A stretch of 63,931 bases of DNA, filler included, from Rhabdomonas costata (taxonomy: Eukaryota), in assembly GCA_019059605.1 (NCBI GenBank). It is 46 parts of 46 records of this genome, joined end to end, with 100 filler letters (N's around TTAATTAATTAA, not from the genome) between each part and the next. Parts side by side here need not be neighbours in the genome. Positions count along the whole stretch, not along the records: positions 12,533 to 13,824 come from JAHMHO010020418.1; 45 more parts are not named here. One strand, 5' to 3'. This document shows, one piece after another, positions 8,050 to 59,701 of this stretch. Every line of letters begins with the position of its first letter. The first letter of the stretch is position 1. Below the pieces are notes generated by a model. That model saw only the letters and a program-made list of their open reading frames with translations. It was not told the origin of the DNA and made no database searches. The position numbers and the translations under genes were made by a program.

Positions 8050-8197
8050 CTGTGTGCACGTGCGTTGACCACATAACGTACCGGCTGAGTGTATGTGGTT
8101 TTGGTTTTGTGATTTTCCGTGGTCTTTTCCCCGCGGAAAGGACTAAAACAAAGTGTGTGTGTGCTTCCAAAAGGTGTGTGTGTCTGCTTCCAAAAGG

Positions 8198-11411: not shown

Positions 11412-12534
11412 CGGAGACATGTCTCTTGTTCTCGTTTGTGCCAGCAAGCTTTTTTGCCGCCATGAATGTTCTTCCTTTCAAAGCTTTGGGACGCTGGACA
11501 TTAACACATTTTCAATATTTTTTTTTGGGTTGGGGGTTCAATTTTTTTGGGGGGTATCAGTATTCAGTGGGGGGCAAAGTTCGAGTGGTTTTCACGAAAG
11601 GGGGGTGTTGGCCATTACCTTCCCTGGGAAACAGTGTGTCGGGCAAATGGGTTTGTGCTTTTCTTTTCTTTTCGAAGCAGGGCTTGAATATGGCAAACAG
11701 CCAGGTCGTCCAGGTCAGGCAAAAGGTCGGTTGAGGTTAACTCCCAAGTCAGGTCCCCAAGAAACAAATAAAAAGAGCGCTGCGAACCTGGGGAGGGTCC
11801 ACGGTCAGAGGGAGAGCTTGGCGCACCTTCGGGGCGTGCTGCTATGCACGGGCTACATGGGCTTCCTCTATGGCGAGGGGGAATGTGGTCGCGAGGGCGA
11901 GAAGGAACAGAGCAGCGAGCGGACGCCCGGTTTCCCGCGCATTATCTGCGTTGGATTGACTCAACGCCTCAGCTCCCATGCAGAGAGCAGGCATTAAGCA
12001 ATTTTCGGCTGCAGGCCGTGCAGGCTGCAGCTCGACATTTTGAAATGCTGTTCTGAACATGAATTTTTCGGCTTTGCGGCTACTTGCTCGCTGCCCCTGC
12101 TACTTCTCGGGGGTTTTTTTTAGAGCCTTAGCACAAATTCGCTGTGTGCGGGTCATTACCCCTTGGCCGTTACCTGAATGCTTGAAGGTGTTCCCACGCC
12201 CCCCAAAATTAAGGTTCTTGTGTTGTGTGCCATGAAAAGACTTTCTATTGCCTGTGTCACACCGAAATGCTCAACGAAGCTCGCCTGCACAGAAAGAAGG
12301 ACAATCCCGGCGAATCTTCCTTCAGAAGGGTGTCCTCCACAAGGGTGGCAGAGTGAGCCAAATTTCCGCCAGGGGATGAGCCGCTTATTTTCCCCCAGGT
12401 TCCCCAGGAACGCAGCCCGCATCCTCGGTAAGNNNNNNNNNNNNNNNNNNNNNNNNNNNNNNNNNNNNNNNNNNNNTTAATTAATTAANNNNNNNNNNNN
12501 NNNNNNNNNNNNNNNNNNNNNNNNNNNNNNNNGG

Positions 12535-13824
12535 TTGTTTGTATGAGTTTCGAGACTACCAGCTGTAAGTGGATTGCACCCAGTGTATACACATTGGGCT
12601 TTAAAAATCAAGCATAGCAGACCAATAGGCATTTAAGTCGTGTTAAGGAATGTAAGTGGCACACCAAAATTATTATTCAAAACCAAAACGTTTGTCACAA
12701 ATGCACACAATTACATATAGACGTGATATAGCAAGTGTAAAACACAGAGTTGCCTATATTCAACAAAACGTTAATACATAAATTCAATCTTGAACACTAC
12801 TGATCTAACAACAACAATGACCCATCTAATTCTGAATAGGAGTCACATTTAATGTAAGTACTGCCAAACAGCTTTTAAAGTTTGTGGTGAAGTACAGCTT
12901 ACTCTAAAGATCTATCATTTTTATTGGGAATGTCAGGTTTTTGGGGAGAAGTTTTTTCCACATTAACATGCAGCTCAGTCCATCAAGTGATTTCTATACA
13001 AGTACCAACTGCCAAGCAGAACTGATGAACAACAATCAAGCAACTGATTCGAATTTCCAGTATGATAATCGTTCGTTTGTGGTTCTGTACTGGATATCTA
13101 CTTAACCAACGTCGTAGAGATTGCTGTAAAATGCCACGCTGGCAGAAGCGGACATTCTGCAGTACTAAATGAATCTCTGATACCACTTTTGCACATACAT
13201 TACGCAATAAAAGGGACCACTAAACCAGCTGAAGTAACGAAAACAGCCGTTTGATTTACTTTTGGCAAAATGTAATTACATTTCGACAGTTTTCAGTCAG
13301 AATAACGATACTTATCCACAGTCTAGAGGTAGTACTTAGGATCACCAAAAACCAAAACGTCCTACACAGTACGTATCCTCATACAGCGAGAAAATTAGCC
13401 CACAGAGTCGATACCACAACCTCATCAGAGACCATTTGTAGAAAAAATGCACATCTGAAGCATCTCCAAAGATTGGATTGCGTATTTTTCATACTCATAG
13501 CAGCTCACACCAGCAAGCGATTCATCTTCAAACTCATCCGAACCACTTCAAGCAGCAGACCCATTTACGTTGGTTACACAAAATGAAGACCCATTCGCTC
13601 TTGGGCCTCAAACCTCCAACAGATGTTAAAACACCGCTCGCACTCAAAGATGGCACATCATTCCAAGAACACTGATACTTTTACACAGAGAAAGATAAAG
13701 AGTCAGCACAATATCAAGCTCACAAAAAAACACCAATTGAAATTCAACTGTGTTCACATCAACGCTTACATCACACTGACCACACGTCCAGTGCTAAGGC
13801 AAGGTAATTTGAGTAAACACCCAC
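12535..13824 (+). CDS. Putative intronless CDS fragment read with a non-stop genetic code (TGA=Trp, TAR=Glu/Gln), likely a second organism
   Basis: AT-rich contig with no intron signature. The frame from 12535 reads ...IECKYCQTAFKVCGEVQLTLKIY...NWFEFPVWESFVCGSVLDIYLTNVVEIAVKCH...QSEERYLSTVEREYLGSPK... when stops are recoded. Family unknown. Confidence 0.55.
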
Positions 13825-14154
13825 NNNNNNNNNNNNNNNNNNNNNNNNNNNNNNNNNNNNNNNNNNNNTTAATTAATTAANNNNNNNNNNNNNNNNNNNN
13901 NNNNNNNNNNNNNNNNNNNNNNNNTTTTTGTTGTTTTCAATCTGCTATTGCAAAATATGGGGCAACCATACCCAGACGACAGAGGAAGAGGAACTGTGGG
14001 ACATATCGCCTCTCAACAGCTTCCAAAGCAAAATGAACAATCGGCCAACAAAGAGCATCGATCGTTATACATCCCTGTCTCGCAACATGGGCTCTTGCCC
14101 AATCGCACACTCCCACACTCTCCGACACGACAAAACGGGAGGGGGAGGAGGCAC

Positions 14155-29991: not shown

Positions 29992-31345
29992 CTGAGCAGC
30001 ATAACAACGTATCCAAGAAAGCGAGAAAGCGAGAGCATGGCAGTTTAGAGGACTGGTGGCCAAGGTCACACGTTGGCATGAACGCAAAAAGAGTAAAAGT
30101 TTTGAAAGAGTTTTCCCTTCCCTTTTTTGTCGCACAAACACAAACAAGCGGGAACAATCAAAGCTTACGAAAAAGACGGCAGCAACTGAAGGTGTCATTT
30201 GCGACTGAAAAACTACTTCCAATAACGCCGACCCACGGTATGCTACCGGCCGCTTTCCCGATTTCAGCGTCTGTCCTTCAAACCAACTTGGTTGATGCAA
30301 TATCAATTGCAACATTGGAGGCCGCACAGTGAGTTTGTGGGCGGCCAAGAGCCGTTTGCCTGGCCCCGTTCGCCGTGACGGGAGAGGCGGGGAGGGATTT
30401 GCGTTTTGTTTTACATATTTTGTGGGTGCCGTCGTTAAACCCTCCGCTGCATGAGGAGAGAAGCGGCACAAAAGGGTTGCTAAAGAGCCGCAAAAGAGGG
30501 GCATCACCACCGGCCGAGGGTGACAGGTCNNNNNNNNNNNNNNNNNNNNNNNNNNNNNNNNNNNNNNNNNNNNTTAATTAATTAANNNNNNNNNNNNNNN
30601 NNNNNNNNNNNNNNNNNNNNNNNNNNNNNGTTTGGGGGACAGGGGTGGGCAAACGGCGGGAAATCGGAAAAGGCTCGCAATTTTTTTTGTTGTGCTACAC
30701 CGCGGAGTCTTTCTCCCTTGCCGGCTGGGTTGTTGAACTCACCGTCCCACTTCGGCTCTTTGCCTTCGAGTCCATTCTCTTTGTGGGTCGTTCTCATGTC
30801 TGTTTCTGTTTGAGCGTTTCTTATGTTGCGTCCTCAGGGAACGGGCTTTCTCGTCAAAAGGGTGTGCGTTGCGGATTGAAGGTACCCCTTTTGCGGGTTT
30901 CAAATTTTTTCTCGGGTGAGGTAGCTGTACGTTTCTTTGCGCTCACACTCTCCCTCGTTGCCTTGCAGTCCCGGTGCGTCAATCTTGCTGAATTTTGTGG
31001 GAAGTCGGCAAAGACTAGAAATTATCGTGGTTCTTTCGTGGAGGCTGTATCCCCTATTTTTAAATGTCATTTTCAGCAACAGGGTGACCATTTTCTGACA
31101 AAATGACAATCCTTTTGTCTTTTTGTCCCTAGAGGGGACCTTCTGCCCCTTAAAAATATCGCAAAAAAGTGCAAAATACAAAACCACACAAGCCAAAATT
31201 TTGCCCGGGGTGGAATTCTACATCCCATTTTGACAGTGCTGAACTGGGCAGAAATTCGCCTCGTCAGCAAGAGCATACATTTTGGGGGCCTGTTCAACAG
31301 TACGCACCACCCCCCCCACCAGTGGCCGACACTCGCCCCACTCAC

Positions 31346-31910
31346 TCTGGCCTTCTCCTCTGACCTCCCTTCGTCATTGATCGTCACGTCAATGATCTCC
31401 CCGAACTTGCGGAAGTGCTCTTCCACCAGCCACTCCACTGTGTGGCGGTGCTCCGGTACGAGTGAACTGGGAAGTTGACTCACCTTCACGCAGTACCGCA
31501 GCCGGGAGTCCTGTTGAGGCGCTCCTTCAGGAACCAAATCGATGTACATCTGCCCGTCATATGTCAGCCCCTTCAGGGCCCCAGCCACACTTTTGGTATG
31601 AAACCCGGCCACCCACACCGTCTTCCCGGGAATGCTCTGGATGGACTTTAAAGGGTTCGCAAAGTCGGAGTCCCCCGAGAGCAGCACAATGTCTTTGGCT
31701 CCGCGGTAGCAGCTCTCCATGAGCTGGGTGGCAATGGCGCAGTCCACCCCGCACTGCACTAGGCCTTTTGTCGGCACCAGTTCCCGCTCGTTGAAGGTGG
31801 CGACGGTCTGCATCTTAAACCCGAACTCCTCGACCTGGACGTGCTGCTCACGCAGGAATTTGTGGAAGTTCTCCTGTAACATCCCCCCGCGTTTGATACG
31901 CCACCACCTT
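31346..31910 (-). CDS. NYN (LabA/DUF88-type PIN) ribonuclease domain followed by an RRM-like domain
   Basis: QCGVDCAIATQL...IVLLSGDSDFANPL...GKTVWVAGF (NYN), then CVKVSQLP...EEHFRKFGEIIDVTI (RRM). Donor aga|gtgagt at 31346. Confidence 0.88.
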
Positions 31911-32233
31911 GAGCTGAGTTTNNNNNNNNNNNNNNNNNNNNNNNNNNNNNNNNNNNNNNNNNNNNTTAATTAATTAANNNNNNNNNNNNNNNNNNNNNNN
32001 NNNNNNNNNNNNNNNNNNNNNTTTGTTTGGTTTTCCAATTCATTTTGAATTCAGTGGGATGCCCGCAAAGTGTGCGCAGTGTATGCGACACAGTGTGCAA
32101 ACTACACACCAAGCTGTGCAGGAAGTTAACCAGTGAAACGGAAGGAAAATGTGCAGGGAGTTACCGTGATGTGGGTTGCGGGACCTGAAAGGCGAGGGGA
32201 ATAACTGGCATTGGGCGAAGCTCAGCAGCTCAC

Positions 32234-38594: not shown

Positions 38595-38978
38595 GTTTGC
38601 GAGCTCTTGCCTCCGATCATCCTCCCACGCACACGGACACCCACGCACAGACACCGCGTCGGCGCCCTTCTCTCCGCACTTTTGTTTTCTGTGTCGCTTT
38701 CCTGTCATCCGAAATTTACGCTGGTCATCTGACTGGGCAGGATGTGCTTAGTGCTGTGCTCTTTTTGGACGAATGCGCACCCCGTTGCATTTTCAATACC
38801 CCACTGCCGTGCACCCTTCCCAGTCAGATGACCAGCGTAAATTTCGGATGACAGGAAAGCGACACAGAAAACAAACCNNNNNNNNNNNNNNNNNNNNNNN
38901 NNNNNNNNNNNNNNNNNNNNNTTAATTAATTAANNNNNNNNNNNNNNNNNNNNNNNNNNNNNNNNNNNNNNNNNNNNC

Positions 38979-40268
38979 CGATTCTAAAATTTTCTGGTAG
39001 AGAAGCACATTCGTCTTGACAAAATGTTGTTTCTTCTTTAAGCGTGTGAGGAAGCGTGTGACTGACTACGCTTACGTGTTGGTACCTTTGAGTTCTACGT
39101 TCTAAGCGTTGACTTTTCTTGGTGTTTCTAGGCATATCTGTGAGAGTACAGGCTGCATTATCACGTTTTAACACTCATATAGTTGCTCTAGTAGTTGCAT
39201 TTGTTGTTACTCTTCCATTTAGTTCTATTAATTCTACAAATCCACGATAACCTGTGTCCCTGGATCCACAAATCGTGGCGAGCATGCAGAGGCCTTCTCA
39301 TTACTAGTGAGTGGTGAGTGTTGTTTGTCTGGGTGTGTTGTACTTCTGGGTCTTTCACGTGTTGGTGCTAGTTGCTCCTCTGTTTGTTGAATTTATTCAA
39401 TGTGTGGTGAGTTGATAAGTTTGAGCTGTCGTGTGTTGTTGTTGTTGTTGGAATGTAAACTTTGCATTAGTCTTTGTTATCTTCATCTGGTTGTTTGGGT
39501 GTGTTCGTGTGACACATAAAGAGTCCAGTGGGTTATCAGGTGGAGTGTCTGATACTGATTAGTAAGTATATCTCTGAGCAAAACATTTTTTGTACAATAT
39601 GATTTATCTGGTAAGTGCGTCTAATTTTACAATGTAGCGCATAAAAGTTTATGCAGTTTTCAGATTTCTTCCAGGTTGGAGAAAATTGGATCTTTGACTC
39701 CATTTAGGTTATTTTTAACACTGAATACAACATTCTACATTATCGGAGCCACTTTGTGAGGTAGACAAGATAATCCATCCCAGTTGACTGAGGCAATTGA
39801 CAATCTCACTGGATCTAACCAACCTCAGACACCTAACCAATAAAATAGTCGTTAAGAACTTACTATTGCATCGCCGCTTATGAGGATACATAACGCTTAC
39901 GAGATATCATACGCCTAAATTGCCACAAGCTAAACTTCAACACTCTACATATTTGAATGCGTACGACCATACTCTGAGTTCACACTCTTTTTATTCACCA
40001 CAATAGAAATTGCTACAGATGGCTAATACTCTGACTTACCTGTCACGGTTTTAGTTAATTCTGGTGATTAAATACACCACCAAATCTCATAAAAACCCAC
40101 CGGATAGCACGGTAAATTTACGAGCATTATACAGTACTGTATTTGAATCTCTGCATGGGAAAACTCTGTATCAATGACACCACAGATCTTGAAAGGCAAG
40201 GATTTGATTCAAAGTCATTCAATCACGTGACTGTAAACTAGCCTCGTTAAAACTGTTCAAAAAAAACA
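38979..40268 (-). CDS. Putative intronless CDS fragment read with a non-stop genetic code (TGA=Trp, TAR=Glu/Gln), likely a second organism
   Basis: AT-rich contig. One minus frame reads ...MESVEVELVAIEAYDISEALCILISG...KDPIFSNLEEIWKLHKLL...VDLENEENEMEEEQQMQLLEQLYECENV... with TAR=Glu and TGA=Trp. Family unknown. Confidence 0.55.
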
Positions 40269-42525: not shown

Positions 42526-44018
42526 CTGCAACAAAGCAAATGTCCAGACCCCACCACCACCACAAAAAAAATCAACGCTAATCACTACAGATTCCGCTAA
42601 GCAGGCAAGGGCCATTTTCGCATCAAACTACAAAAACGCTTTGGTATGGCCCAACTCACATTAAAAGTGAGAGTTTTAGAAATCCAAAGATAAAAACATG
42701 GGAAGCGGCAATGCAACGAATGGGCAGCGTAAGAAGGGGTCATCTCAGTTCGTTGTTTTCTTCATTTTTCAACCCTTTTGTCGCTATGAAGTTCGTAAAT
42801 GCTCTCATTTATTGGACAGTTCTCACTTTTGAAGTGAAGCGGACAATATAACAATTGCAACGGGGATTTAACTCATCTGAAACCTTCATACTTCCCTTTT
42901 TATCGAAAAAACAGACTTGCTAACAGGTAGAAAAGGGTCGATAAGAATGGCAGGAATCCCTCCCCTTCCAACTCGAACCCTAACCGAATCCGCAGCAGCG
43001 CCGAAATGAGTGAGGTAGGGAAAAGATAGAGCACCACAGCTTGCTCCTGGNNNNNNNNNNNNNNNNNNNNNNNNNNNNNNNNNNNNNNNNNNNNTTAATT
43101 AATTAANNNNNNNNNNNNNNNNNNNNNNNNNNNNNNNNNNNNNNNNNNNNTGTTGTTGGTGGAAGTGGAAAGGTCCACTCAATTTGAAACTGAATGAGCC
43201 ACCCTATTCTTGACAGGCGCTCGCCCTACGGTGTTCACGCTGGTTTACATTCACTCCAAACACGCCACAAAAGTCAAATCAACAGCCAGGACTGACCTTC
43301 AGAGACCTAATTGAGTGCGGATAAATCTCCCGCGAAACGGGAACGCAAATACCTGGGGCACTATCACCGCGATCGCTTCCGTGGAGTTGAGGTTTGGATT
43401 GAGACTCCTCAAAGCCGGGTCTGACCAGTGGGTCACATTTCCTGTTATTGGAAAAAACAAAAAATCGAGACCTTGCCACATCCCAAAGTGCGCACAACAA
43501 CAAGATTTGGGAATAGCACATTAGACGGTCCCCCACCCCGTGACGCAGACCCGAGCGTAGCGATCGCTACCGAGTATACTCATTCCAGAAGTGTGTTGGT
43601 GCCTAGAATTTTAGGTGTTAAGTGTGTCAGAACCTAGAATCGCCCAAGACATCCTGGAAACTTTCCATGGGAAACGTGCATCGCCTCCTAACCCCCTGCA
43701 AAGTCTCTTTTAGACTTCCACGGGACACATACTAAAGCCCACCGCAAAAGTTGCGTAGCGGTCGCCACGCACAGAGTGAGTAACGCCGCTAAGCAAAAGT
43801 GAATAACGGGGGGCGGGGTCTAATGTATTATAGCCACATATTTTTTTGGGGGGTCCCTCCTCCAAAGTTGAGAATCGGGAATTGCGCCTTGTGCTTTGTG
43901 CCCTAGGCATCAGAAAAATGAGGATTTACATCATGCATCATGCGTAAGAGGTGAATGACACAGTTAATGCACAAACGTGCATATATGTGCAAGATTCCAG
44001 TTAGAATGAAATATTCAT

Positions 44019-44050
44019 GAAATAAAATAAATAAAATAAATAAATAATAA
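44019..44050 (+). repeat. (AAATA/AATA)n AT-rich simple repeat
   Basis: aaataaaataaataaaataaataaataataa seen directly within an AT-rich non-coding patch. Confidence 0.8.
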
Positions 44051-44934
44051 TTATAATATTAATAAAAAATTATTATAACAATATTCATTCATATTCACTA
44101 TGAAAAATAAGCATGAAAATTAGCGTATGAATTTTCCCCAAAAAATTGCCCCTTTTTATCCAGACCAGCGCGATAGCCTGGAAAATTAACCACTTTAACC
44201 ACTCAGCACACCCGCCGACGTGTACATTTTTACGTTGGTGTGGTCTTGTGTGGTCTGCACCGTCCTATTGCCCTTAAATCGAGTAAATTTCCTGGTTGAG
44301 TCAAACCTATTGTTATTTATGCCCTCTTTGCTTGTTTTGAGGGGCATTGTATGCACGATAGCATCGAAAACGTGCAATTTCATTTGACCCAATACTAATA
44401 CCAGGCCGCATAATTAAAGTCGCAATATTCCACCACCACACNNNNNNNNNNNNNNNNNNNNNNNNNNNNNNNNNNNNNNNNNNNNTTAATTAATTAANNN
44501 NNNNNNNNNNNNNNNNNNNNNNNNNNNNNNNNNNNNNNNNNTCTGACATTCCGGAAAGACCAGCCAGAAAACAGAACATTCTGGCATTTTTGTGCAGTTT
44601 GGAAATAGGAGGTTGGCCGAATCTCAAACTGAATATGTAAGGCGAAACAGACTGCCTTGGCGTTGGGCTTGTAAGTTTGGGAAGTACAGCGGAAAACGAC
44701 GCACGATATACTCACCTTCATTTTTGCTGCCTAATGAATTTGCCTGTGGACATGGCATATTGTTATTTTTTATCACCAAACTGTGTGGCATCACGACGGT
44801 ACTCCTGCTGCGATTTGGTGTCTGGCAAGGTATAGCCACAATTTAGCAAGAGAAACCAAGCAAAAAAGCTAAATTTGCCTTTTTAATTTCAAGCAAAGGG
44901 CAGCTGAACACCTCTATTGGACCTTCTTTTGCAG

Positions 44935-45115: not shown

Positions 45116-46154
45116 GTAGCGCGGCACTGAGTCAGTCGGCTCTTTCGGCTCTTGTGAGAAATCGCATGATGAAGGGCCTGGGCCGCGGCTTTCTGGCTGC
45201 TACTTGTTAGGTCGGCAGGGCTGCGGGTCACAAAAACATGCACATAATCAGGCTCACTGCCCCGGTTGCAAAATTCTGCGGCTCCGCCACCCCCCACTCC
45301 ACCCCGCGCTTTTCGATGTTGGGCTTAAATACTTGCAGTGATGTGTTTTGATCACGCCGAACATTTTCTGAATTCTCATTCAAGGACAAGATTTGACCTC
45401 GACCTCGACCTATGTTGCGAATTTTGTTTTGATTTCAAGCTGCATGCTGAAGACTTGCCCCTTGTAGGGCTTTGACGGACAGTGGGCTAAAATCATTTCA
45501 AGGGCCGCGGTGGGGGCCGCTCCAGCGGCGAGGAGTGGGGGAACGTTGCCTAGGGAGGCAATTATTCGGGTGCATCGATGGAAAAAACGATGGTGTTCAC
45601 TGAGACGAAGCGCAGCCGTTTCCTGTACTTCGTCTTAAGCCTTAGTGTATTTTCAGCTGTGTTAGCGCTCACTGAAAGACGACAGCGACGAAAAGAATGT
45701 TTATGGCGTTGTTATCATCCTTTGACACCATTCAACATCGGTATCGACCCCCCCCCTCCCGAGCAGCAAATCCTATGAAACACCTTCCGACGACACACCG
45801 TAACATTTGCTGACGAACCCTTCCCCCAAAAANNNNNNNNNNNNNNNNNNNNNNNNNNNNNNNNNNNNNNNNNNNNTTAATTAATTAANNNNNNNNNNNN
45901 NNNNNNNNNNNNNNNNNNNNNNNNNNNNNNNNTGTTGTGGTTATAATTAAGCATGCCCCTGGCCGGTTCGGGCTCGAGAAGAAGTTCACGTCTCCACGCG
46001 CCCCCCCCCGCACCCATGCGTCCTCTTGTCTTCTCGTATGTGGATCTGTTCCATCACGCTTGGCCACCGAGACCACCTTGAACAGACCACACATTCCGGT
46101 GGGTTACGTGCGTACACAGCGGGACACCCCTGTTCCCTTCCGAGGCCCCGCTTC

Positions 46155-46350
46155 AAGGCTCGCGTCAAATGCCTGCCGGTATTTCGCGTCCATCAAAATT
46201 TACGCCTTACAAAGCATCTAAAAGAGGGCTGTTGCCTTCTCTGTTTTCGATGGGAGCTTGTCCATGTGGCATTCCAGCGCCAGGAGCCTAATGCTGTCAT
46301 TATTGCTGTTGACGAGGCCTTATTATTCCTTACCGCTGCCACTCTTACGC
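46155..46350 (-). pseudogene. Decayed DnaJ (J-domain) coding sequence
   Basis: KASSTAIMTA[frameshift]RLLALECHMDKLPSKTEKATALF*MLCKA*ILMDAKYRQAFD aligns with ASxxEIKKAYRKLALKYHPDK...AxxxFQxIxxAYEILSDxxKRxxYD. Confidence 0.7.
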
Positions 46351-46973
46351 ACTCCTCCATTCCATAACACGTTATGTGATCCCATTCTGACACATCTTTT
46401 GTTCTTCTACTGCTCCTCTCAACACGTCACGCAGTACGACCCTGTCGTCTCTTTCCGATTCTACCTTTGCCCCCAACGCGGATTAGCTGTCACGTCCCAT
46501 GTTCCCCACTCCGCGCCCCCTCTGCGGTAGAGGGGGTTCCTCATTGGGTGCTCGCTTTCGCCAATCCCTTGTGCCAGATCCGCGCTTTACTCCAATAATA
46601 GATGAAGTTCTGTGATCTCTTCCACCTCCAGCCCAGGCCTTACATCAGAATCATCCAGGGCAACCCAATTTGGGAGTTCCAGCTCCCACGTCCAGCACGT
46701 CCAAAAAACTGATTTTTTGGAGCATGGCACGGCGTTCTCTGGAATCTTCATACATGACGGAAAACCTTGCGCTCGCTTCTCTAACGAACAGTTGTTCGCC
46801 CCACGGTTCCGAGGAAGCGTCCATCACGCGTGTGGTGCGTCTCGCTACCACCAATTATTTCCACCAGTTAGGTTCCGCAACTCTCTCTTTCGCGCGCACG
46901 CACACACACATGGCGCCTTGGCACTGTGTGCTGTGGCGTGTCCTTGTGCTGCTTGTTCTGCACACATGTTGTT

Positions 46974-47072
46974 TTTTTTGGCGCGTTCAAGGTGCTGCTG
47001 TTCGTGCTGGACAACACGGCTGGCATTGGGGCATTGTGGTGAGAGTGTGCGCCGTGCCCATCCACACACACA
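46974..47072 (+). repeat. Dispersed ~95-bp repeat ending in (CA)n, copy 1
   Basis: ttttggcgcgttcaaggtgctgctgttcgtgctggac...ggtgagagtgtgcgccgtgcccatccacacaca matches the reverse complement of 51313-51405. Confidence 0.9.
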
Positions 47073-48240
47073 AACCCCTCAAAACACATACCATCCGGGC
47101 AACAGCCAGCACACACCTTGTCCCTGGCAGGTCAGAGAGATTTGCGGGTCGGGCATCCTCTCGTAAAGAGTCTTGTCTACATTTCCTGGTTTAAACCAGC
47201 CACAAAACCGCAAATGCACGGTATNNNNNNNNNNNNNNNNNNNNNNNNNNNNNNNNNNNNNNNNNNNNTTAATTAATTAANNNNNNNNNNNNNNNNNNNN
47301 NNNNNNNNNNNNNNNNNNNNNNNNCTGACCAAGCAAACCCCCGCGACACCGCCTGTGGCTGGGGCCGAGAGTCCTGCGGTGCAATCCGTGCCGTCTCCGG
47401 CGCCCTTTCTGGGCAAGCCAGAGCGTACTGTACTTGCTGTCTAGTCCACGTTATCCGTTTCAAAGCTCATGGAGGGCGGCTGGGGGGTTCCTTTTTGCAG
47501 CTGTTTGCAATTGTTCACCTGATGTCTGAGGGTGAAGGTGTGTTGCGACTAGCTAGAGTATTTATTGCTGAACTGGGCCCTCCCAGCGGAGCACCTAATG
47601 TCAGGCGATGTCCCAGTACGTGTGCGCATTCGAATGCATGTCCCCGTGCGTGTATGCTCCCTTTTGGTGTATGCAGGACTCCCTGCCACCCCCCCCTCCC
47701 CTGAGAGTCCGGATTGCGGGGGGGGGGGGGATTGAAGCAATGGATTTTTCTCGAGATTCTGTGGGTTTTGGTTAGATAGGTTCTCGCAAAGGAGGAGTGA
47801 ATCCCCCCCCCTTGCCCTGCTCAGACCCCCTGAGGTTTATAAATTCTATAGGAATATAAATTCTTAACATGGGTGATTGGGTGATTGTGGTTCCTTAATG
47901 AGTGCTTTCTCAACCTCTGAGCCTTTTGAAAACTTGTTCCTGTTCGGTTGTGTTTTTTCGTTGCCGGGCTTTTTTACAGCTTCTGTGTTGTGAGTTTTCG
48001 TCCCACTTGATTTTGTATCAGATGGAACCTGAAAGCCAGGTGTGCGGTTTTTCCGTCCGTTGGAAGATGTATACTTCTGTTGTGGCATCGCCGTTCTGCG
48101 TTATCAGCCATGCGTGACTTCCACGGGAAGTTCGGGGTGCCCTCACCCACTAAGGGCAAATTGGAGAGGCGGACAAAGAGGAACAACAAAAGAACCATAA
48201 ACCCGACGCGGCCCCTGACCACCATTTTGCGTTTTTTCAG

Positions 48241-49294: not shown

Positions 49295-51274
49295 CTGAGG
49301 GGGGGGGTCCAAATCGGAGCACACTCAGACAGCGTGACACACAGTGTGACCTCAGAAACAGTCTCAATGCCACCAAAAGAACCCAAGACACAGCGCACAG
49401 GACTTCACAGGGCAATGCGAAGAGAGGAGGGGGAGGGGCAAATGGCGTAAAAGGAAAACTAGAACGTGGTGTGCACAAATTTCAAAGGACAACGGGATGC
49501 GCCCCGCATATGTTCCAGCAATGTCTCTGAGTTCTCTTTGGGTGTGGTTTGTGAAAGCAATCCTCGCCAGCGGAGTCGGCAAGGTGTACGACGTGGACCA
49601 AAGCTAAACTCCTGGAGTTGAAAATCCATGCACTCCCCCCACCCATTCACACACAACACCATCCACAAGCTTTCGCTGCTTCATTTTCTGCATTCGGGCC
49701 TTGCCCCACTCCATCAGCTCCTGCTGCTTTTCCTGCGATGAAAGGAGAAGGAGTTGGTTTGCTTTTTGATTCATGATTCAATGAGTTAAAATCAAGGGAC
49801 CATTGCAATGATCGGTGCGATGACAAGACACACACATACACGTGCACGCACACATTCCGGATTCTGCAACTTTCCAGCAAGTCATTGGCATTTGGACCTA
49901 CCTGACATTCCCTAATAGCCGACAGCAAGCGCTTACGTCGAAGCAGGTCAACCGCTATCGTTGATACTTTTGTTGAGAATCCCATGTGGTCTGTGACCCC
50001 AAACCCNNNNNNNNNNNNNNNNNNNNNNNNNNNNNNNNNNNNNNNNNNNNTTAATTAATTAANNNNNNNNNNNNNNNNNNNNNNNNNNNNNNNNNNNNNN
50101 NNNNNNTGTTGGTGGTATGACCTCATCTATAACCGCAACGATTTCAAGTTAAGGTTAACGGATGTCTTCACCTCGTTGGGCAAAGACTCCCATCTGGTAG
50201 AGGTACTGGGCACGCGTTGATTGCGTCAGAGAGAGGTGGACGAGCGTTGTGAAGGATGCTGGGGCATAGGCCGGGGTGTGCATGAGGTGGGTTTCCAGTG
50301 TTTGTGTAGAGGGTTCCGGGTTTGGAAGAAGGGACGGTTGGTCACGTGCTTTCCCCCGACGTTCACAAAACGATTTTGCGAGCGTTGGGGAGGGTCGTAT
50401 CTTGGGCCACTTTGGAAACTCTGGCGATGTATCATCAGATAGGTGTTCTCCCTTTCACGAAAATGGTGATCCCATCATTGGGTTGGAGTCTCTCTCGGTT
50501 TCTTTTTTCTCGCCAGTGCTGAGAGCACCCTTGCCAACAAACAACAACAAGAAGAGGGGCTCAGAGGGTGGGGAGGTAGTCCATAGAGCGCGAGCCTCAT
50601 AAAAGTATTCATACCTTTTGTCAACGTATTGCACAACCAAGCAGTGGTGTTGATACGTGTGTGGATTGGCCATATTTTCGTGCATTCGTTTGGCCATATT
50701 TTCGTGCGACTCTGCGAGGAAGAATGAAATTGCAGTTTCCTCCTTTCCTTGACTTTTATCAGCCGAACCTACTCCAACGAAGCTGCCTAGCCTTGGGTCG
50801 GACCGCTTTGTGAAGCCCAAGTCCCCCATCTCGTTGTCGCCACTCACCCAGCCGAAGACCGTCTGGGAACGCCGAGGTTTCATACTGCTGTTGAATTCAT
50901 AAACTTACAAATTCCAAAGGAGGGCAGAAAGGAAGCAGCGTAGCAGGGCGGTTTTATTGCGATTCTTTCACATGATCCGCATGGATGCTGTCGATTTTCG
51001 GCAGATTTTGGTTCGGTCTGGAAATTTCGTTTGATGTCGACTTCTTTTTTGCTTCAGATACGGAATCCGCGTCGACGCCACCCTTCGGCGATTCCAAGTC
51101 GCTGCCTCCTGTCGTCGAGCCCAGGTGTCGCAAGCCCATCCTTTGAATGGCAGTGGTAACGCCTAACGTGGGACATTTGCTGATTTGCTGCCCCCTTTGA
51201 GTGTTCATCCCCAAAAAAATTTGATCCGAGGTTGAAATTGGATTCCTTTCCCAACTTTGGTTTTATTGTGGGCT

Positions 51275-51276
<2 letters not shown>

Positions 51277-51325
<49 letters not shown>

Positions 51326-51405
51326 ATGGGCACGGCGCACACTCTCACCCCAATGCCCGTCGTGTCGTCCAGCACGAACAGCAGCACCGTGAACGCGCCA
51401 AAAAA
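51277..51405 (-). repeat. Dispersed ~95-bp repeat copy 2 with a long (GT)n tail
   Basis: Reverse-complement match to 46974-47072; (GT) tract at about 51277-51324. Confidence 0.9.
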
Positions 51406-52517
51406 CCANNNNNNNNNNNNNNNNNNNNNNNNNNNNNNNNNNNNNNNNNNNNTTAATTAATTAANNNNNNNNNNNNNNNNNNNNNNNNNNNNNNNNNNNN
51501 NNNNNNNNGTGTTGGGTGTGGGTGGTGTTGGGGGGGGAGAGGCTCCGGCCCATCTCGAGGCCTGCGGGAAAAATGAGCTGAACCCGGGCAGCACAAAGCC
51601 TCATCTGCTAAGAGTCTCGGCCTGAGAACAGCCTGCTTCCGTTTTGGGCTGGTGCTGACTATGTTACGGATTATTTCTGTTTCTGTTTCCTTTTGTGTAG
51701 TGCGGGAGCGGTGGCTGCATCCCTCCGCGTGGGGTGGGCTCCAGTTTGGGACACTTGTGGGTGAAAGTGCTTATGGGTGGATGGGTAGATGTCGGTTCTC
51801 GACGATTTGACTTTGGATGCTGAAACGTTAGACGCCGTTCAGCGTCAATGTTTTTTATTTTTCGGTTTTCTTTTTTTTTCGAGCACGAGGGTTACGTAGT
51901 GTCCGTATACCCACTACACTCTAGATGATGTTTTTGCGGAGAGGGGCATAGGTAAACTACTCCATTGCCTTCGAGGGTTAGTTAAACTGTGTCAGAACCA
52001 TCAGATGTAATTTTGCCGAAAGGGTTTGGTGTACTGTGCCAGTTCCCTCAAAGGACAATTTTGAAAAAATTTTATATTTTATATTTTATATTTCCATCTT
52101 TTACCGCATCAAACGCTTAACCCCCTCCCCCTCCCAAAAATGCATGAGTCCTTTCCTTCAGTGATGTCAGTCTTCACTGGCCACCGCACAACCTCCATTG
52201 GCCTAGTCCCGACTTCCGGTCGTGTTTGCGGATAATCAGGTATTCTCCATGTGGTCATTGGCATCTCATACTTAAACGTCTTTCTCCAGGTCCTACCCTT
52301 CTTTTGTGCTTCGTAGCAACCCCCCCCCCTTCTCGTAGACATCGCTCGAGCTTAGCCTCGCCCTTCACTCTGGTTTCTGACCCCACTCCCTTTGGGGCCC
52401 TATCCCTCTCTCTCTCTCTCTTCCTCTCCCTCCCTCCGACCGCTCCCCGCACCATATCCTCAATATCTTTGACCTTCCAAAGCTCCGCGGCCGCGGCCAG
52501 AGCGCACGGCTTCCGAA

Positions 52518-52626: not shown

Positions 52627-53289
52627 GTCGGTGATGCCTCCTCCGCTGTGTCGCAGTCAGTCCACCTGTCACATTGCACCGCACATATGTGAGGGTGTGT
52701 ATCACGCATAGACTCTCCGGAACCAATAATTGACAAAACTCGAAATAAAAAGGGGCTTAAAATGGACAATAATTCTGTATCTCGTTACTCCCAACCCCCN
52801 NNNNNNNNNNNNNNNNNNNNNNNNNNNNNNNNNNNNNNNNNNNTTAATTAATTAANNNNNNNNNNNNNNNNNNNNNNNNNNNNNNNNNNNNNNNNNNNNT
52901 TGTGTGTTTGGGGTTTGTTGTGCTTCTTTTCGTTCCATCGTACCTTGCAGCGTTGGTTGGTTGCTTTGTTGTCGGTACATTATTGTCAACTTTACGTGAA
53001 AACGATGTAAAACACGACGGGTGTTGCAGCGGGGTAGTGCTTGTCGGGGATTTAGGGGAAGTATATGTTTCTTTATACAGACTCGGGATCTGGTTTAGGG
53101 GAACCTACTTACTCATGATGCACTGACAAAATCCGGTGTTTTCAATGGATTTCTTGCACTCACCCCCCTAGTCGCGATTCTGATAAGGCATATGCTGCAA
53201 AACTATGCTGGCGCGCCCGCAGAGTTACCGCCTGGCTTCTGAACGAGATTGCAACAAAAGAGCACACCGACGTCGCCTGCTCCACGGAT

Positions 53290-53682
53290 CCGAAACAGTT
53301 TTCGGAGGCTGCGGTTGCGACGGATGTGGTGAGCGTGAAGCACGTGGAGACCAGCACCTCGGCACGACCCACAACCGAATCATCCTCCACGAATACGGAA
53401 GTGGCGATTCCGAAAGAGTTTTCGGAGGCTGCGGTTGCGACGGATGTGGTGAGCGTGAAGCACGAGGAGACCAGCACCCCGGCACGACCCGCAACCGAGT
53501 CGTCCTTCACGAATACGGAAGTGGTGATTCCGAAAGAGTTTTCAGAGGCTGCGATTGCGACGGATGTGGTGAGCGTGAAGCATAAAACGACGAGCACGCC
53601 CGCTCGGGCGTGCATCGCCTCCAGTACTAATACCGAGGCTGAGGCAGTGAAGGAGGTTTCGGAGGCTGCGGTTGCGACGGAT
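53290..53682 (+). repeat. Coding 120-bp tandem repeat (~3.3 units of 40 aa)
   Basis: PKEFSEAAVATDVVSVKHxETSTxARPxTESSxTNTEVxI repeats at 53290, 53410 and 53530, with a partial copy near 53650; frame preserved. Confidence 0.92.
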
Positions 53683-58265: not shown

Positions 58266-58803
58266 GTATGTGCCCCCCCCCCTCAGCGAATATCCAGGGA
58301 GGGCAGGTGGGGAAGGAAGTCGTTGCCCACGAAGCAGCACAGGAACACAAAGTCGTCCAACACCACNNNNNNNNNNNNNNNNNNNNNNNNNNNNNNNNNN
58401 NNNNNNNNNNTTAATTAATTAANNNNNNNNNNNNNNNNNNNNNNNNNNNNNNNNNNNNNNNNNNNNGGGTTTGGTGGTGCAAAAAAGAAACGAGGTTCTA
58501 CCGCTGGGATGCGGTGGTCCTGTGGGGAGCTGGCAATGGTTAGGTGCGGAACTGTTTGTGATTTCGTTCGTTTCAAGCAGTTGCCTGCAGCGCGATATGG
58601 AGCTGACGCGGGTGCATGGACGAAGTGCTAAGATGAAACTGAAAACTTCAGGGCTTTAGGTAACAGTTCTGCCTTTCCGCTGAAGCCGCATGCCGCAGTC
58701 CCAAGCAGACAACAAACGATGTCATTTTGGGCCTGTGCCCTCTTTCTGGCAGTCCATTGCTTTATCTTGTTCTTCCGTGCTCATGCCCATTTTTCTTTTG
58801 CAA

Positions 58804-59701
58804 ATGAAGCTTCTAGCTCTCGCCGTGCTCCTTCTGCTTGGCCCGACTGGCTGCAGGGGAGAAGTGCACCACCGCAGTCAGGAGCTGGGCTTTCATCCCG
58901 CCGTGCTTGGGGAAAAGGACGAGCTTCTGGTCGTCCTGCAGGCTAACCCTTCCACGGGCTATGGGTGGGAAGCCCACTACGACGGCGACGTGATTGCAAA
59001 GAAGGAGCACTCCTGTACCTACCCCCGGGAGGGACTTCTTGGTCAGCCCTGTGAGATGACGATGTTGTTTGTCGGGTCCACCACCCCCCGCTCCACTCAC
59101 CTGACGATGCACTACCGCCGCCCGTGGGAGACCTCGAAGGCCCCGCTGCGCACCGTGAACATGTCGGTGACTTCCTTGAAGGCCTACAGTGGCGCCCGGG
59201 ACTTTACCCCAGCACAGAAGGAGGAGGACTCGACTGTTCAGGTCTCGCCCTTGCCAAAAGGCCCCCCCGTAGGGCCTGGGCGCACCACAACGCTCCCGCA
59301 AGCCATCCCCTCCGTCTATGACCCTCGCGCTTCCGCAGGCTATCCTCCGATCAAGAACCAGGTGCTCCCTTTGCTTGTGGCTTCTCACCGTACACTCGCG
59401 CATATGAGGTGCATGCGTGGATATCCTTTGGCAGCGACCATGGAAAGGGTATAGCATGCAATGAGGACGTCATATGTTTTGATATGACGGATGATATGAC
59501 CTGCTTTCTTCGATCTCAGCTCAGCGAGTCCTGTGTTATTAACGTACTTGTATCTTTGAAGAAGCGGCTTCTTGAGGTGCGGGTGTGTTTTGGGGAACTC
59601 TCACAGCAAGCCTGTGGGGCCTGCTGGGCGTTTGCCACGGTGGGAATGCTGGAGGTTACTTTGTCGGCCGTTTTCCAGTCCACAGTACAACTCTCGGAGC
59701 A
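58804..59701 (+). CDS. Secreted chagasin (inhibitor I42) - papain-family (C1A) cysteine protease fusion, 5' part (2 exons)
   Basis: Exon 58804-59361: signal peptide, NPSTGYGW, GLLG, YRRPWE (I42), then IPSVYDPR...PPIKNQ. Exon 59607-59701: QACGACWAFATVGMLE...LSEQ (catalytic Cys). Phase-0 GT-AG intron. Confidence 0.9.

Follow-up and report, generated by a model that had tools for sequence, protein, structure and literature searches.

An AT-rich contig in the Rhabdomonas costata assembly: very probably non-coding DNA, most likely from a second genome, and almost certainly not a gene with all stop codons reassigned

Whether the draft assembly of Rhabdomonas costata harbours a gene in which TAA, TAG and TGA are all read as amino acids is the question raised by a short, AT-rich contig in which a first-pass annotation saw a protein encoded in the frame from position 12535. 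If this were true, it would reveal a new lineage in which all three stops have been reassigned, a notable addition to the few cases that are known. The analyses described here indicate instead that the contig is almost certainly not a recoded gene, and that it is very probably non-coding DNA, most likely derived from a second, AT-richer genome that lies outside the main genome of about 52% GC. The window, by which we mean the whole stretch of DNA that was analysed, comprises 63,931 bases in 46 separate contigs of 1286-1302 bp each, placed end to end and joined by artificial spacers that consist of an N run, TTAATTAATTAA and a further N run, with TTAATTAATTAA presenting stops in six frames. It represents one slice of a fragmented draft assembly sorted by length, in which adjacency is biologically meaningless, and because the spacers between contigs are artificial, the sequence on either side of the AT-rich contig does not provide genomic context (Table 1).

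Table 1. Positions, counted along the whole window, of the AT-rich contig, the reading frames considered within it, the adjoining spacers and a second contig of like composition.
Feature	Position	Strand	Remarks
Whole assembly contig, 1292 bp, 38.9% GC	12533..13824		Reads as non-coding in six frames; no Rfam match
Proposed frame, 430 codons with 25 in-frame stops	12535..13824	+	Stop count equal to shuffle expectation; no periodicity
T/G-rich stretch, residues 128-150 of the recoded frame	12916..12984	+	Segment matched by phmmer
Run of 200 codons without TAA or TAG, in another frame	13224..13823	+	Open only if TGA is sense; reaches the contig end
Artificial spacer (N run, TTAATTAATTAA, N run)	12433..12532		Joins unrelated contigs
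Artificial spacer (N run, TTAATTAATTAA, N run)	13825..13924		Joins unrelated contigs
Second AT-rich contig, 38.6% GC, reads as non-coding	38978..40268		Oligonucleotide signature matches that of contig 12533-13824

It is clear that the contig stands apart from its neighbours in base composition, as had been noticed at the outset. Its GC fraction is 0.389 against 0.489-0.563 for 43 of the 45 other contigs, the remaining two being contig 43151-44441 at 0.44 and contig 38978-40268 at 0.386. The AT-richness is uniform, with 18 of 20 sliding 300-bp windows not exceeding 42% GC, and the + strand contains A 35%, C 22%, T 26% and G 17%. The excess of A over T and of C over G on this strand was considered as a hint of transcription from the - strand and was set aside as weak and inconsistent from one part of the contig to another. 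The absence of a (GT)n signature, also remarked upon earlier, is confirmed by Tandem Repeats Finder, which detects neither (GT)n nor any other tandem repeat in this contig and places (GT)n/(TG)n arrays in other contigs at 8197, 27590, 36956, 51276 and 56295. Rfam returned 0 matches at E<=1 for the contig, ARAGORN in its standard mode found no tRNA anywhere in the window, and comparison of the contig with the other 45 yielded no similarity, the best match being 23 nt long at E 0.22.

Several features of the remaining contigs are of interest in their own right. An exon-like ORF at 31073-31921 on the - strand (contig 30630-31921) carries an NYN domain, and over about 170 residues it shows just 3 differences from a 434-residue protein sourced from EukProt (P0005) that also has zinc-finger Pfam families; the similarity breaks off sharply on either side, as it would at exon/intron borders. 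This near-identity identifies the bulk of the window as the DNA of a eukaryote that uses ordinary codons in that exon. The dinoflagellate spliced-leader motif, sought as a clue to the main organism, has 0 matches in the window with up to 3 mismatches allowed, an outcome that is uninformative in either direction. A second ORF, at 58684-59454 on the + strand, contains a peptidase inhibitor I42 domain of the chagasin family, which scores 39.9 bits (cut-off 27.2; E 5e-10). A 120-bp tandem repeat at 53289-53582 (2.5 copies, 94% identity), which probably encodes a 40-residue protein repeat, is located in the contig with the strongest period-3 signal in the window (9.4). The only similarity between contigs anywhere in the window is that of 46974-47075 to 51312-51405 (contigs 45933-47224 and 50107-51408), which extends over about 100 bp, oppositely oriented and 87% identical, and may reflect a repeat dispersed in the main genome.

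The central proposal, that the frame from 12535 reads as a coherent protein once its stops are recoded, fares no better than chance by stop content, periodicity or codon-position tests. The hand counts on which it drew are exact (TAA 10, TAG 5, TGA 10, GAR 15 and CAR 19), TGG accounts for a further 4 of the 430 codons, and the peptide strings quoted in its favour are all present in the frame. Over 2000 shuffles of the sequence that preserve dinucleotides, this frame has 22.6 ± 4.4 stops against the 25 observed, and 25 or fewer were obtained in 75% of these shuffles. Stop counts across the six frames of the contig are 24, 14, 25, 31, 24 and 17, the value of 25 being that of the proposed frame, where mononucleotide composition predicts about 27 per frame; the lowest of them, 14, is matched in some frame by 8% of shuffles, and the longest run that is open under the standard code, 117 codons, is reached in 11%. 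The proposed frame is open because any frame becomes so once TAA, TAG and TGA are all taken as sense, a caveat that the first-pass annotation had itself attached to the proposal and that is well founded, the apparent coherence being at the level of chance. Its other reservation, that the Trp content comes out high, is equally justified, with Trp at 3.3% of the residues in the recoded frame and TGA roughly threefold too frequent for a Trp codon. More generally, the recoded translation is low in Ala (4.2%), Gly (3.0%), Asp (1.9%) and Met (0.7%) and high in Thr, Ser, His and Trp, as is obtained when an A+C-rich strand is read at random. None of the 21 NCBI translation tables tried on the contig gave a frame that exceeds chance.

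The 3-nt periodicity that had been put forward as a check on the frame is lacking, with Fourier period-3 power at 2.0 times the median compared with 5.2-9.4 in the coding contigs of the window. Base content by codon position over the whole proposed frame gives a chi2 of 12.7 (p = 0.048); for four ORFs of the main genome, 849-1089 bases in length, the values are 36-50 (p 2e-6 to 6e-9). Within the proposed frame, bias is lacking from the first half (p = 0.82) and weak in the second (chi2 14.2, p = 0.028, uncorrected). Coding sequence is usually enriched in G at codon position 1, and G occupies 19% of these positions in the proposed frame as against 30-37% in the four main-genome ORFs.

Homology was sought with translations of the proposed frame under tables 31 and 28, which differ from one another at 15 of 430 residues. 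Seven read-through translations, namely those of all six frames under table 31 and that of the proposed frame under table 28, were compared with Pfam, and no family reached its cut-off in any of them, the best score being 14.8 bits against a cut-off of 24.5. Exhaustive HMMER searching covered the proposed frame, the other five frames were covered by Pfam, and the 200-codon run listed in Table 1 was in addition the subject of a word-based search. When the table-31 translation of the proposed frame was searched with phmmer against 1,835,955,588 representative proteins (2.4e11 residues), two matches were obtained at E<=1e-3 (1.7e-5 and 6.5e-4) and none at E<=1e-10. Both matched sequences (P0003 and P0004) are internally repetitive ORFs with a unit of about 25-35 residues, and every repeat copy aligns within query residues 128-150, over 18-23 residues and at 39-48% identity. 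The reported E-values are as low as they are because up to six repeat copies have been summed on this one segment of the query; the best single aligned stretch scores at most 30.8 bits, and by the usual score statistics thousands of such stretches would be estimated to arise by chance in a library of this size. The sole in-frame stop within the aligned segment, the TAA at residue 144, pairs with Phe and not with Glu, Gln or Trp, and neither phmmer against the 1.84e9 proteins nor Pfam produced a homologue that extends across the in-frame stops. Negative homology searches are by themselves insufficient to dismiss coding, since a fast-evolving orphan gene would also be without homologues. Here they stand beside the periodicity results, and on all three of the grounds on which the original proposal was to be judged, namely periodicity, a homologue across the stops and the residue opposite a stop, the outcome is unfavourable to it.

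A different reading of the contig takes it to be organellar, most likely mitochondrial, with TGA as Trp and the stretch 13224-13823 as part of a gene. With only TAA and TAG counted as stops, one + frame contains 7 of them and the 200-codon run, a length reached in just 2% of 1000 shuffles, a figure uncorrected for the several codes and frames that were tried; low GC and an A+C-rich strand also recall organelle genomes. The translation of the run is nonetheless not hydrophobic but basic, with abundant Ser, Thr and His, no homologue was found for it among 35 word-sharing candidates and no match in Pfam, and its positional bias is weak (chi2 15.5, p 0.017) and has G lowest at codon position 1 (13%). 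Neither an rRNA or other Rfam match nor a standard-mode tRNA lies in the contig, and recognisable mitochondrial genes at high density were not found in it by Pfam, Rfam or aragorn. A tRNA-like fold at contig positions 882-950, called by aragorn -mt, was rejected as background, there being 10 such calls over the contigs of the window, 9 of which fall in main-genome contigs. The run is most likely a product of chance, and an organellar origin of the contig is highly improbable.

If the contig is foreign to the main genome, its composition should set it apart in ways that go beyond GC content, and it is in this respect that contig 38978-40268 is informative. This second contig is also uniformly AT-rich (GC of 42% or less in 18 of 20 windows) and has no sequence similarity to the first; it is without coding signal (19-34 stops per frame and no Pfam match), and its one Rfam match is at chance level (E = 8.3). 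The dinucleotide odds ratios of contigs 12533 and 38978 agree closely with one another and differ from the mean of the main contigs (n=43): AC/GT is 1.19 and 1.25 against 0.95, CC/GG 0.82 and 0.80 against 1.07, TA 0.73 and 0.80 against 0.50, AA/TT 1.08 and 1.03 against 1.30, and CG 0.61 and 0.67 against 0.78. Their dinucleotide deviation vectors are correlated at r = 0.93, rank 3 among 1035 contig pairs, and their trinucleotide vectors at r = 0.84, rank 1 of the 1035. When second-order Markov models were compared with a leave-one-out model of the main genome, only these 2 of the 46 contigs fitted each other better than that model, by +0.08 and +0.10 bit per base, and the scores of the remaining 44 ran from -0.02 to -0.19 bit per base. 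As an AT-rich control, 19 regions of the main genome were pooled (5540 bp, 42.6% GC), and these retain the main signature (AA 1.37, AC 0.92, CC 1.10, TA 0.52 and CG 0.79), from which it follows that low GC alone is insufficient to generate the deviant pattern. With GC normalised, the signature of the contig is distinct both from that of the bulk and from that of the AT-rich DNA of the bulk. The 44% GC contig at 43151-44441, in which GC falls to a minimum of 29% in an AT-rich tail and an (AAATAA)-like repeat occupies 44020-44083, has a signature uncorrelated (r about 0) with those of the 39% GC pair, and its Markov score falls between both classes.

The composition of these two contigs, 2.6 kb in all, suggests that contig 12533-13824 comes from a second source genome, which we consider the better-founded attribution and hold with some confidence, and contig 38978-40268 probably comes from the same foreign source. 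CpG occurs 30 and 32 times in the two contigs against 48 expected, with CA/TG in excess, and this moderate depletion is compatible with a methylated eukaryotic genome; two contigs that are wholly non-coding would likewise be easier to reconcile with a gene-poor genome than with a bacterium, a virus or an organelle. On the preferred account, contig 12533-13824 is ordinary intergenic or intronic DNA, geneless in any frame or code, and probably belongs to an AT-richer and gene-poor genome that may have been co-sequenced and co-assembled with the main one, whether as a contaminant, a food organism or an associate. Earlier, a second eukaryote in the assembly had been put forward, with a variant code as one of its possible attributes. 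Composition favours the foreign DNA and nothing points to the variant code, and the suggestion of foreign DNA is probably right but mundane. No match to contig 12533-13824 was found by blastn in distant mode against plasmids and phages, and its exact 24-mers occur 0 times in metagenome, prokaryote-genome and viral contigs, collections that include no eukaryote genomes.

Origin from a second genome has to be weighed against the possibility that the contig is the main genome's own non-coding DNA, such as a degenerate transposon relic, centromere- or telomere-proximal sequence, or a horizontally acquired segment of atypical composition. Such a reading accords with the non-coding character of the contig and with the lack of an external DNA match in the collections searched. 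Main-genome contigs show local dips to 39-42% GC, and some are themselves dinucleotide outliers, with contigs 22276 and 11141 at distances of 150 and 122 where the two AT-rich contigs are at 152 and 161. What is seen could also be produced by a transposon, or by some other main-genome compartment, with a signature of its own. Against this, the pooled AT-rich DNA of the main genome (5.5 kb) keeps the main dinucleotide signature and the contig deviates from it, the contig is AT-rich from end to end rather than over a local dip, and its pattern of deviation is common to a second contig with which it has no sequence similarity. We regard the main-genome reading as unlikely, though it is by a wide margin the least improbable of the alternatives, and prefer the second genome as the source.

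The reading of the frame from 12535 as a gene, with TAA and TAG as Glu or Gln and TGA as Trp (table 31 or 28), draws its appeal from the fact that such codes are known from AT-rich genomes, Blastocrithidia genomes being described as GC-poor (PMC12153298), and from TAA and TAG frequencies near those given there; the slight codon-position bias seen in the latter half of this frame might be added. Set against these are a stop frequency that equals chance and is similar across the six frames, a TGA load about three times that reported for Blastocrithidia (PMC12153298), a Trp content of 3.3%, the lack of periodicity, the low G at position 1, and a search record with no Pfam domain and a single 23-residue low-complexity phmmer match in which TAA stands opposite Phe. 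Coding signal is likewise missing from contig 38978-40268, which falls into one compositional class with contig 12533-13824. This reading is accordingly scarcely credible, and the same must be said of a variant of it in which the 39% GC contigs would come from an unsampled eukaryote with all stops sense, and 12535-13824 would be a weakly biased, fast-evolving orphan gene.

With non-coding DNA from a second genome as the preferred explanation, the contig serves mainly to show what recoding of all stops does to any AT-rich non-coding DNA. The practical value of the result is limited, in that 2 of the 46 contigs of the window (about 4%) are probably from a second genome; since such a genome is probable, low-GC contigs need to be binned and checked before gene content or genetic code is inferred from this assembly.

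Comparison with systems in which stop codons have been reassigned is instructive. The nuclear code of Blastocrithidia is NCBI table 31, in which UAR specifies Glu and UGA specifies Trp, with UAA also serving as a terminator. The GC-poor genomes of these organisms are reported to have coding sequences in which UAA makes up 2.06-2.28%, UAG 1.38-1.66% and UGA 0.72-0.85% of codons, UGA use mirrors Trp content, and the suppressors are tRNA-Glu with UUA and CUA anticodons and a tRNA-Trp with a shortened anticodon stem (PMC12153298). The contig resembles Blastocrithidia in being AT-rich and in the TAA and TAG content of the proposed frame, 2.3% and 1.2% of codons respectively, figures close to those reported there; the agreement in TAR codons is an effect of composition, shuffles giving about 15 TAR per frame. 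It differs in its TGA content, which at 10 of 430 codons (2.3%) is about three times the range given there (PMC12153298) and matches random expectation, and in having a similar stop load in all frames with neither periodicity nor a homologue. Condylostoma, Parduczia and other karyorelict ciliates (codes of the table 28 type) and Amoebophrya sp. have ambiguous stop/sense codes (10.1101/2022.04.12.488043; PMC6394959) and offer a formal likeness only, that of all stops read as sense. Such codes were deduced by aligning numerous conserved genes over their in-frame stops, whereas here nothing aligns, and translation of the proposed frame under table 28 had the same Pfam outcome as under table 31. 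A closer parallel is found in the contaminating or co-assembled DNA of draft eukaryote assemblies. Although contig 12533-13824 has no donor match in the plasmid, phage, prokaryote, metagenome and viral collections, it is, as in such cases, a short contig, odd in both GC content and oligonucleotide signature, and accompanied by one fellow contig of the same kind, with neither of the two linked to other sequence.
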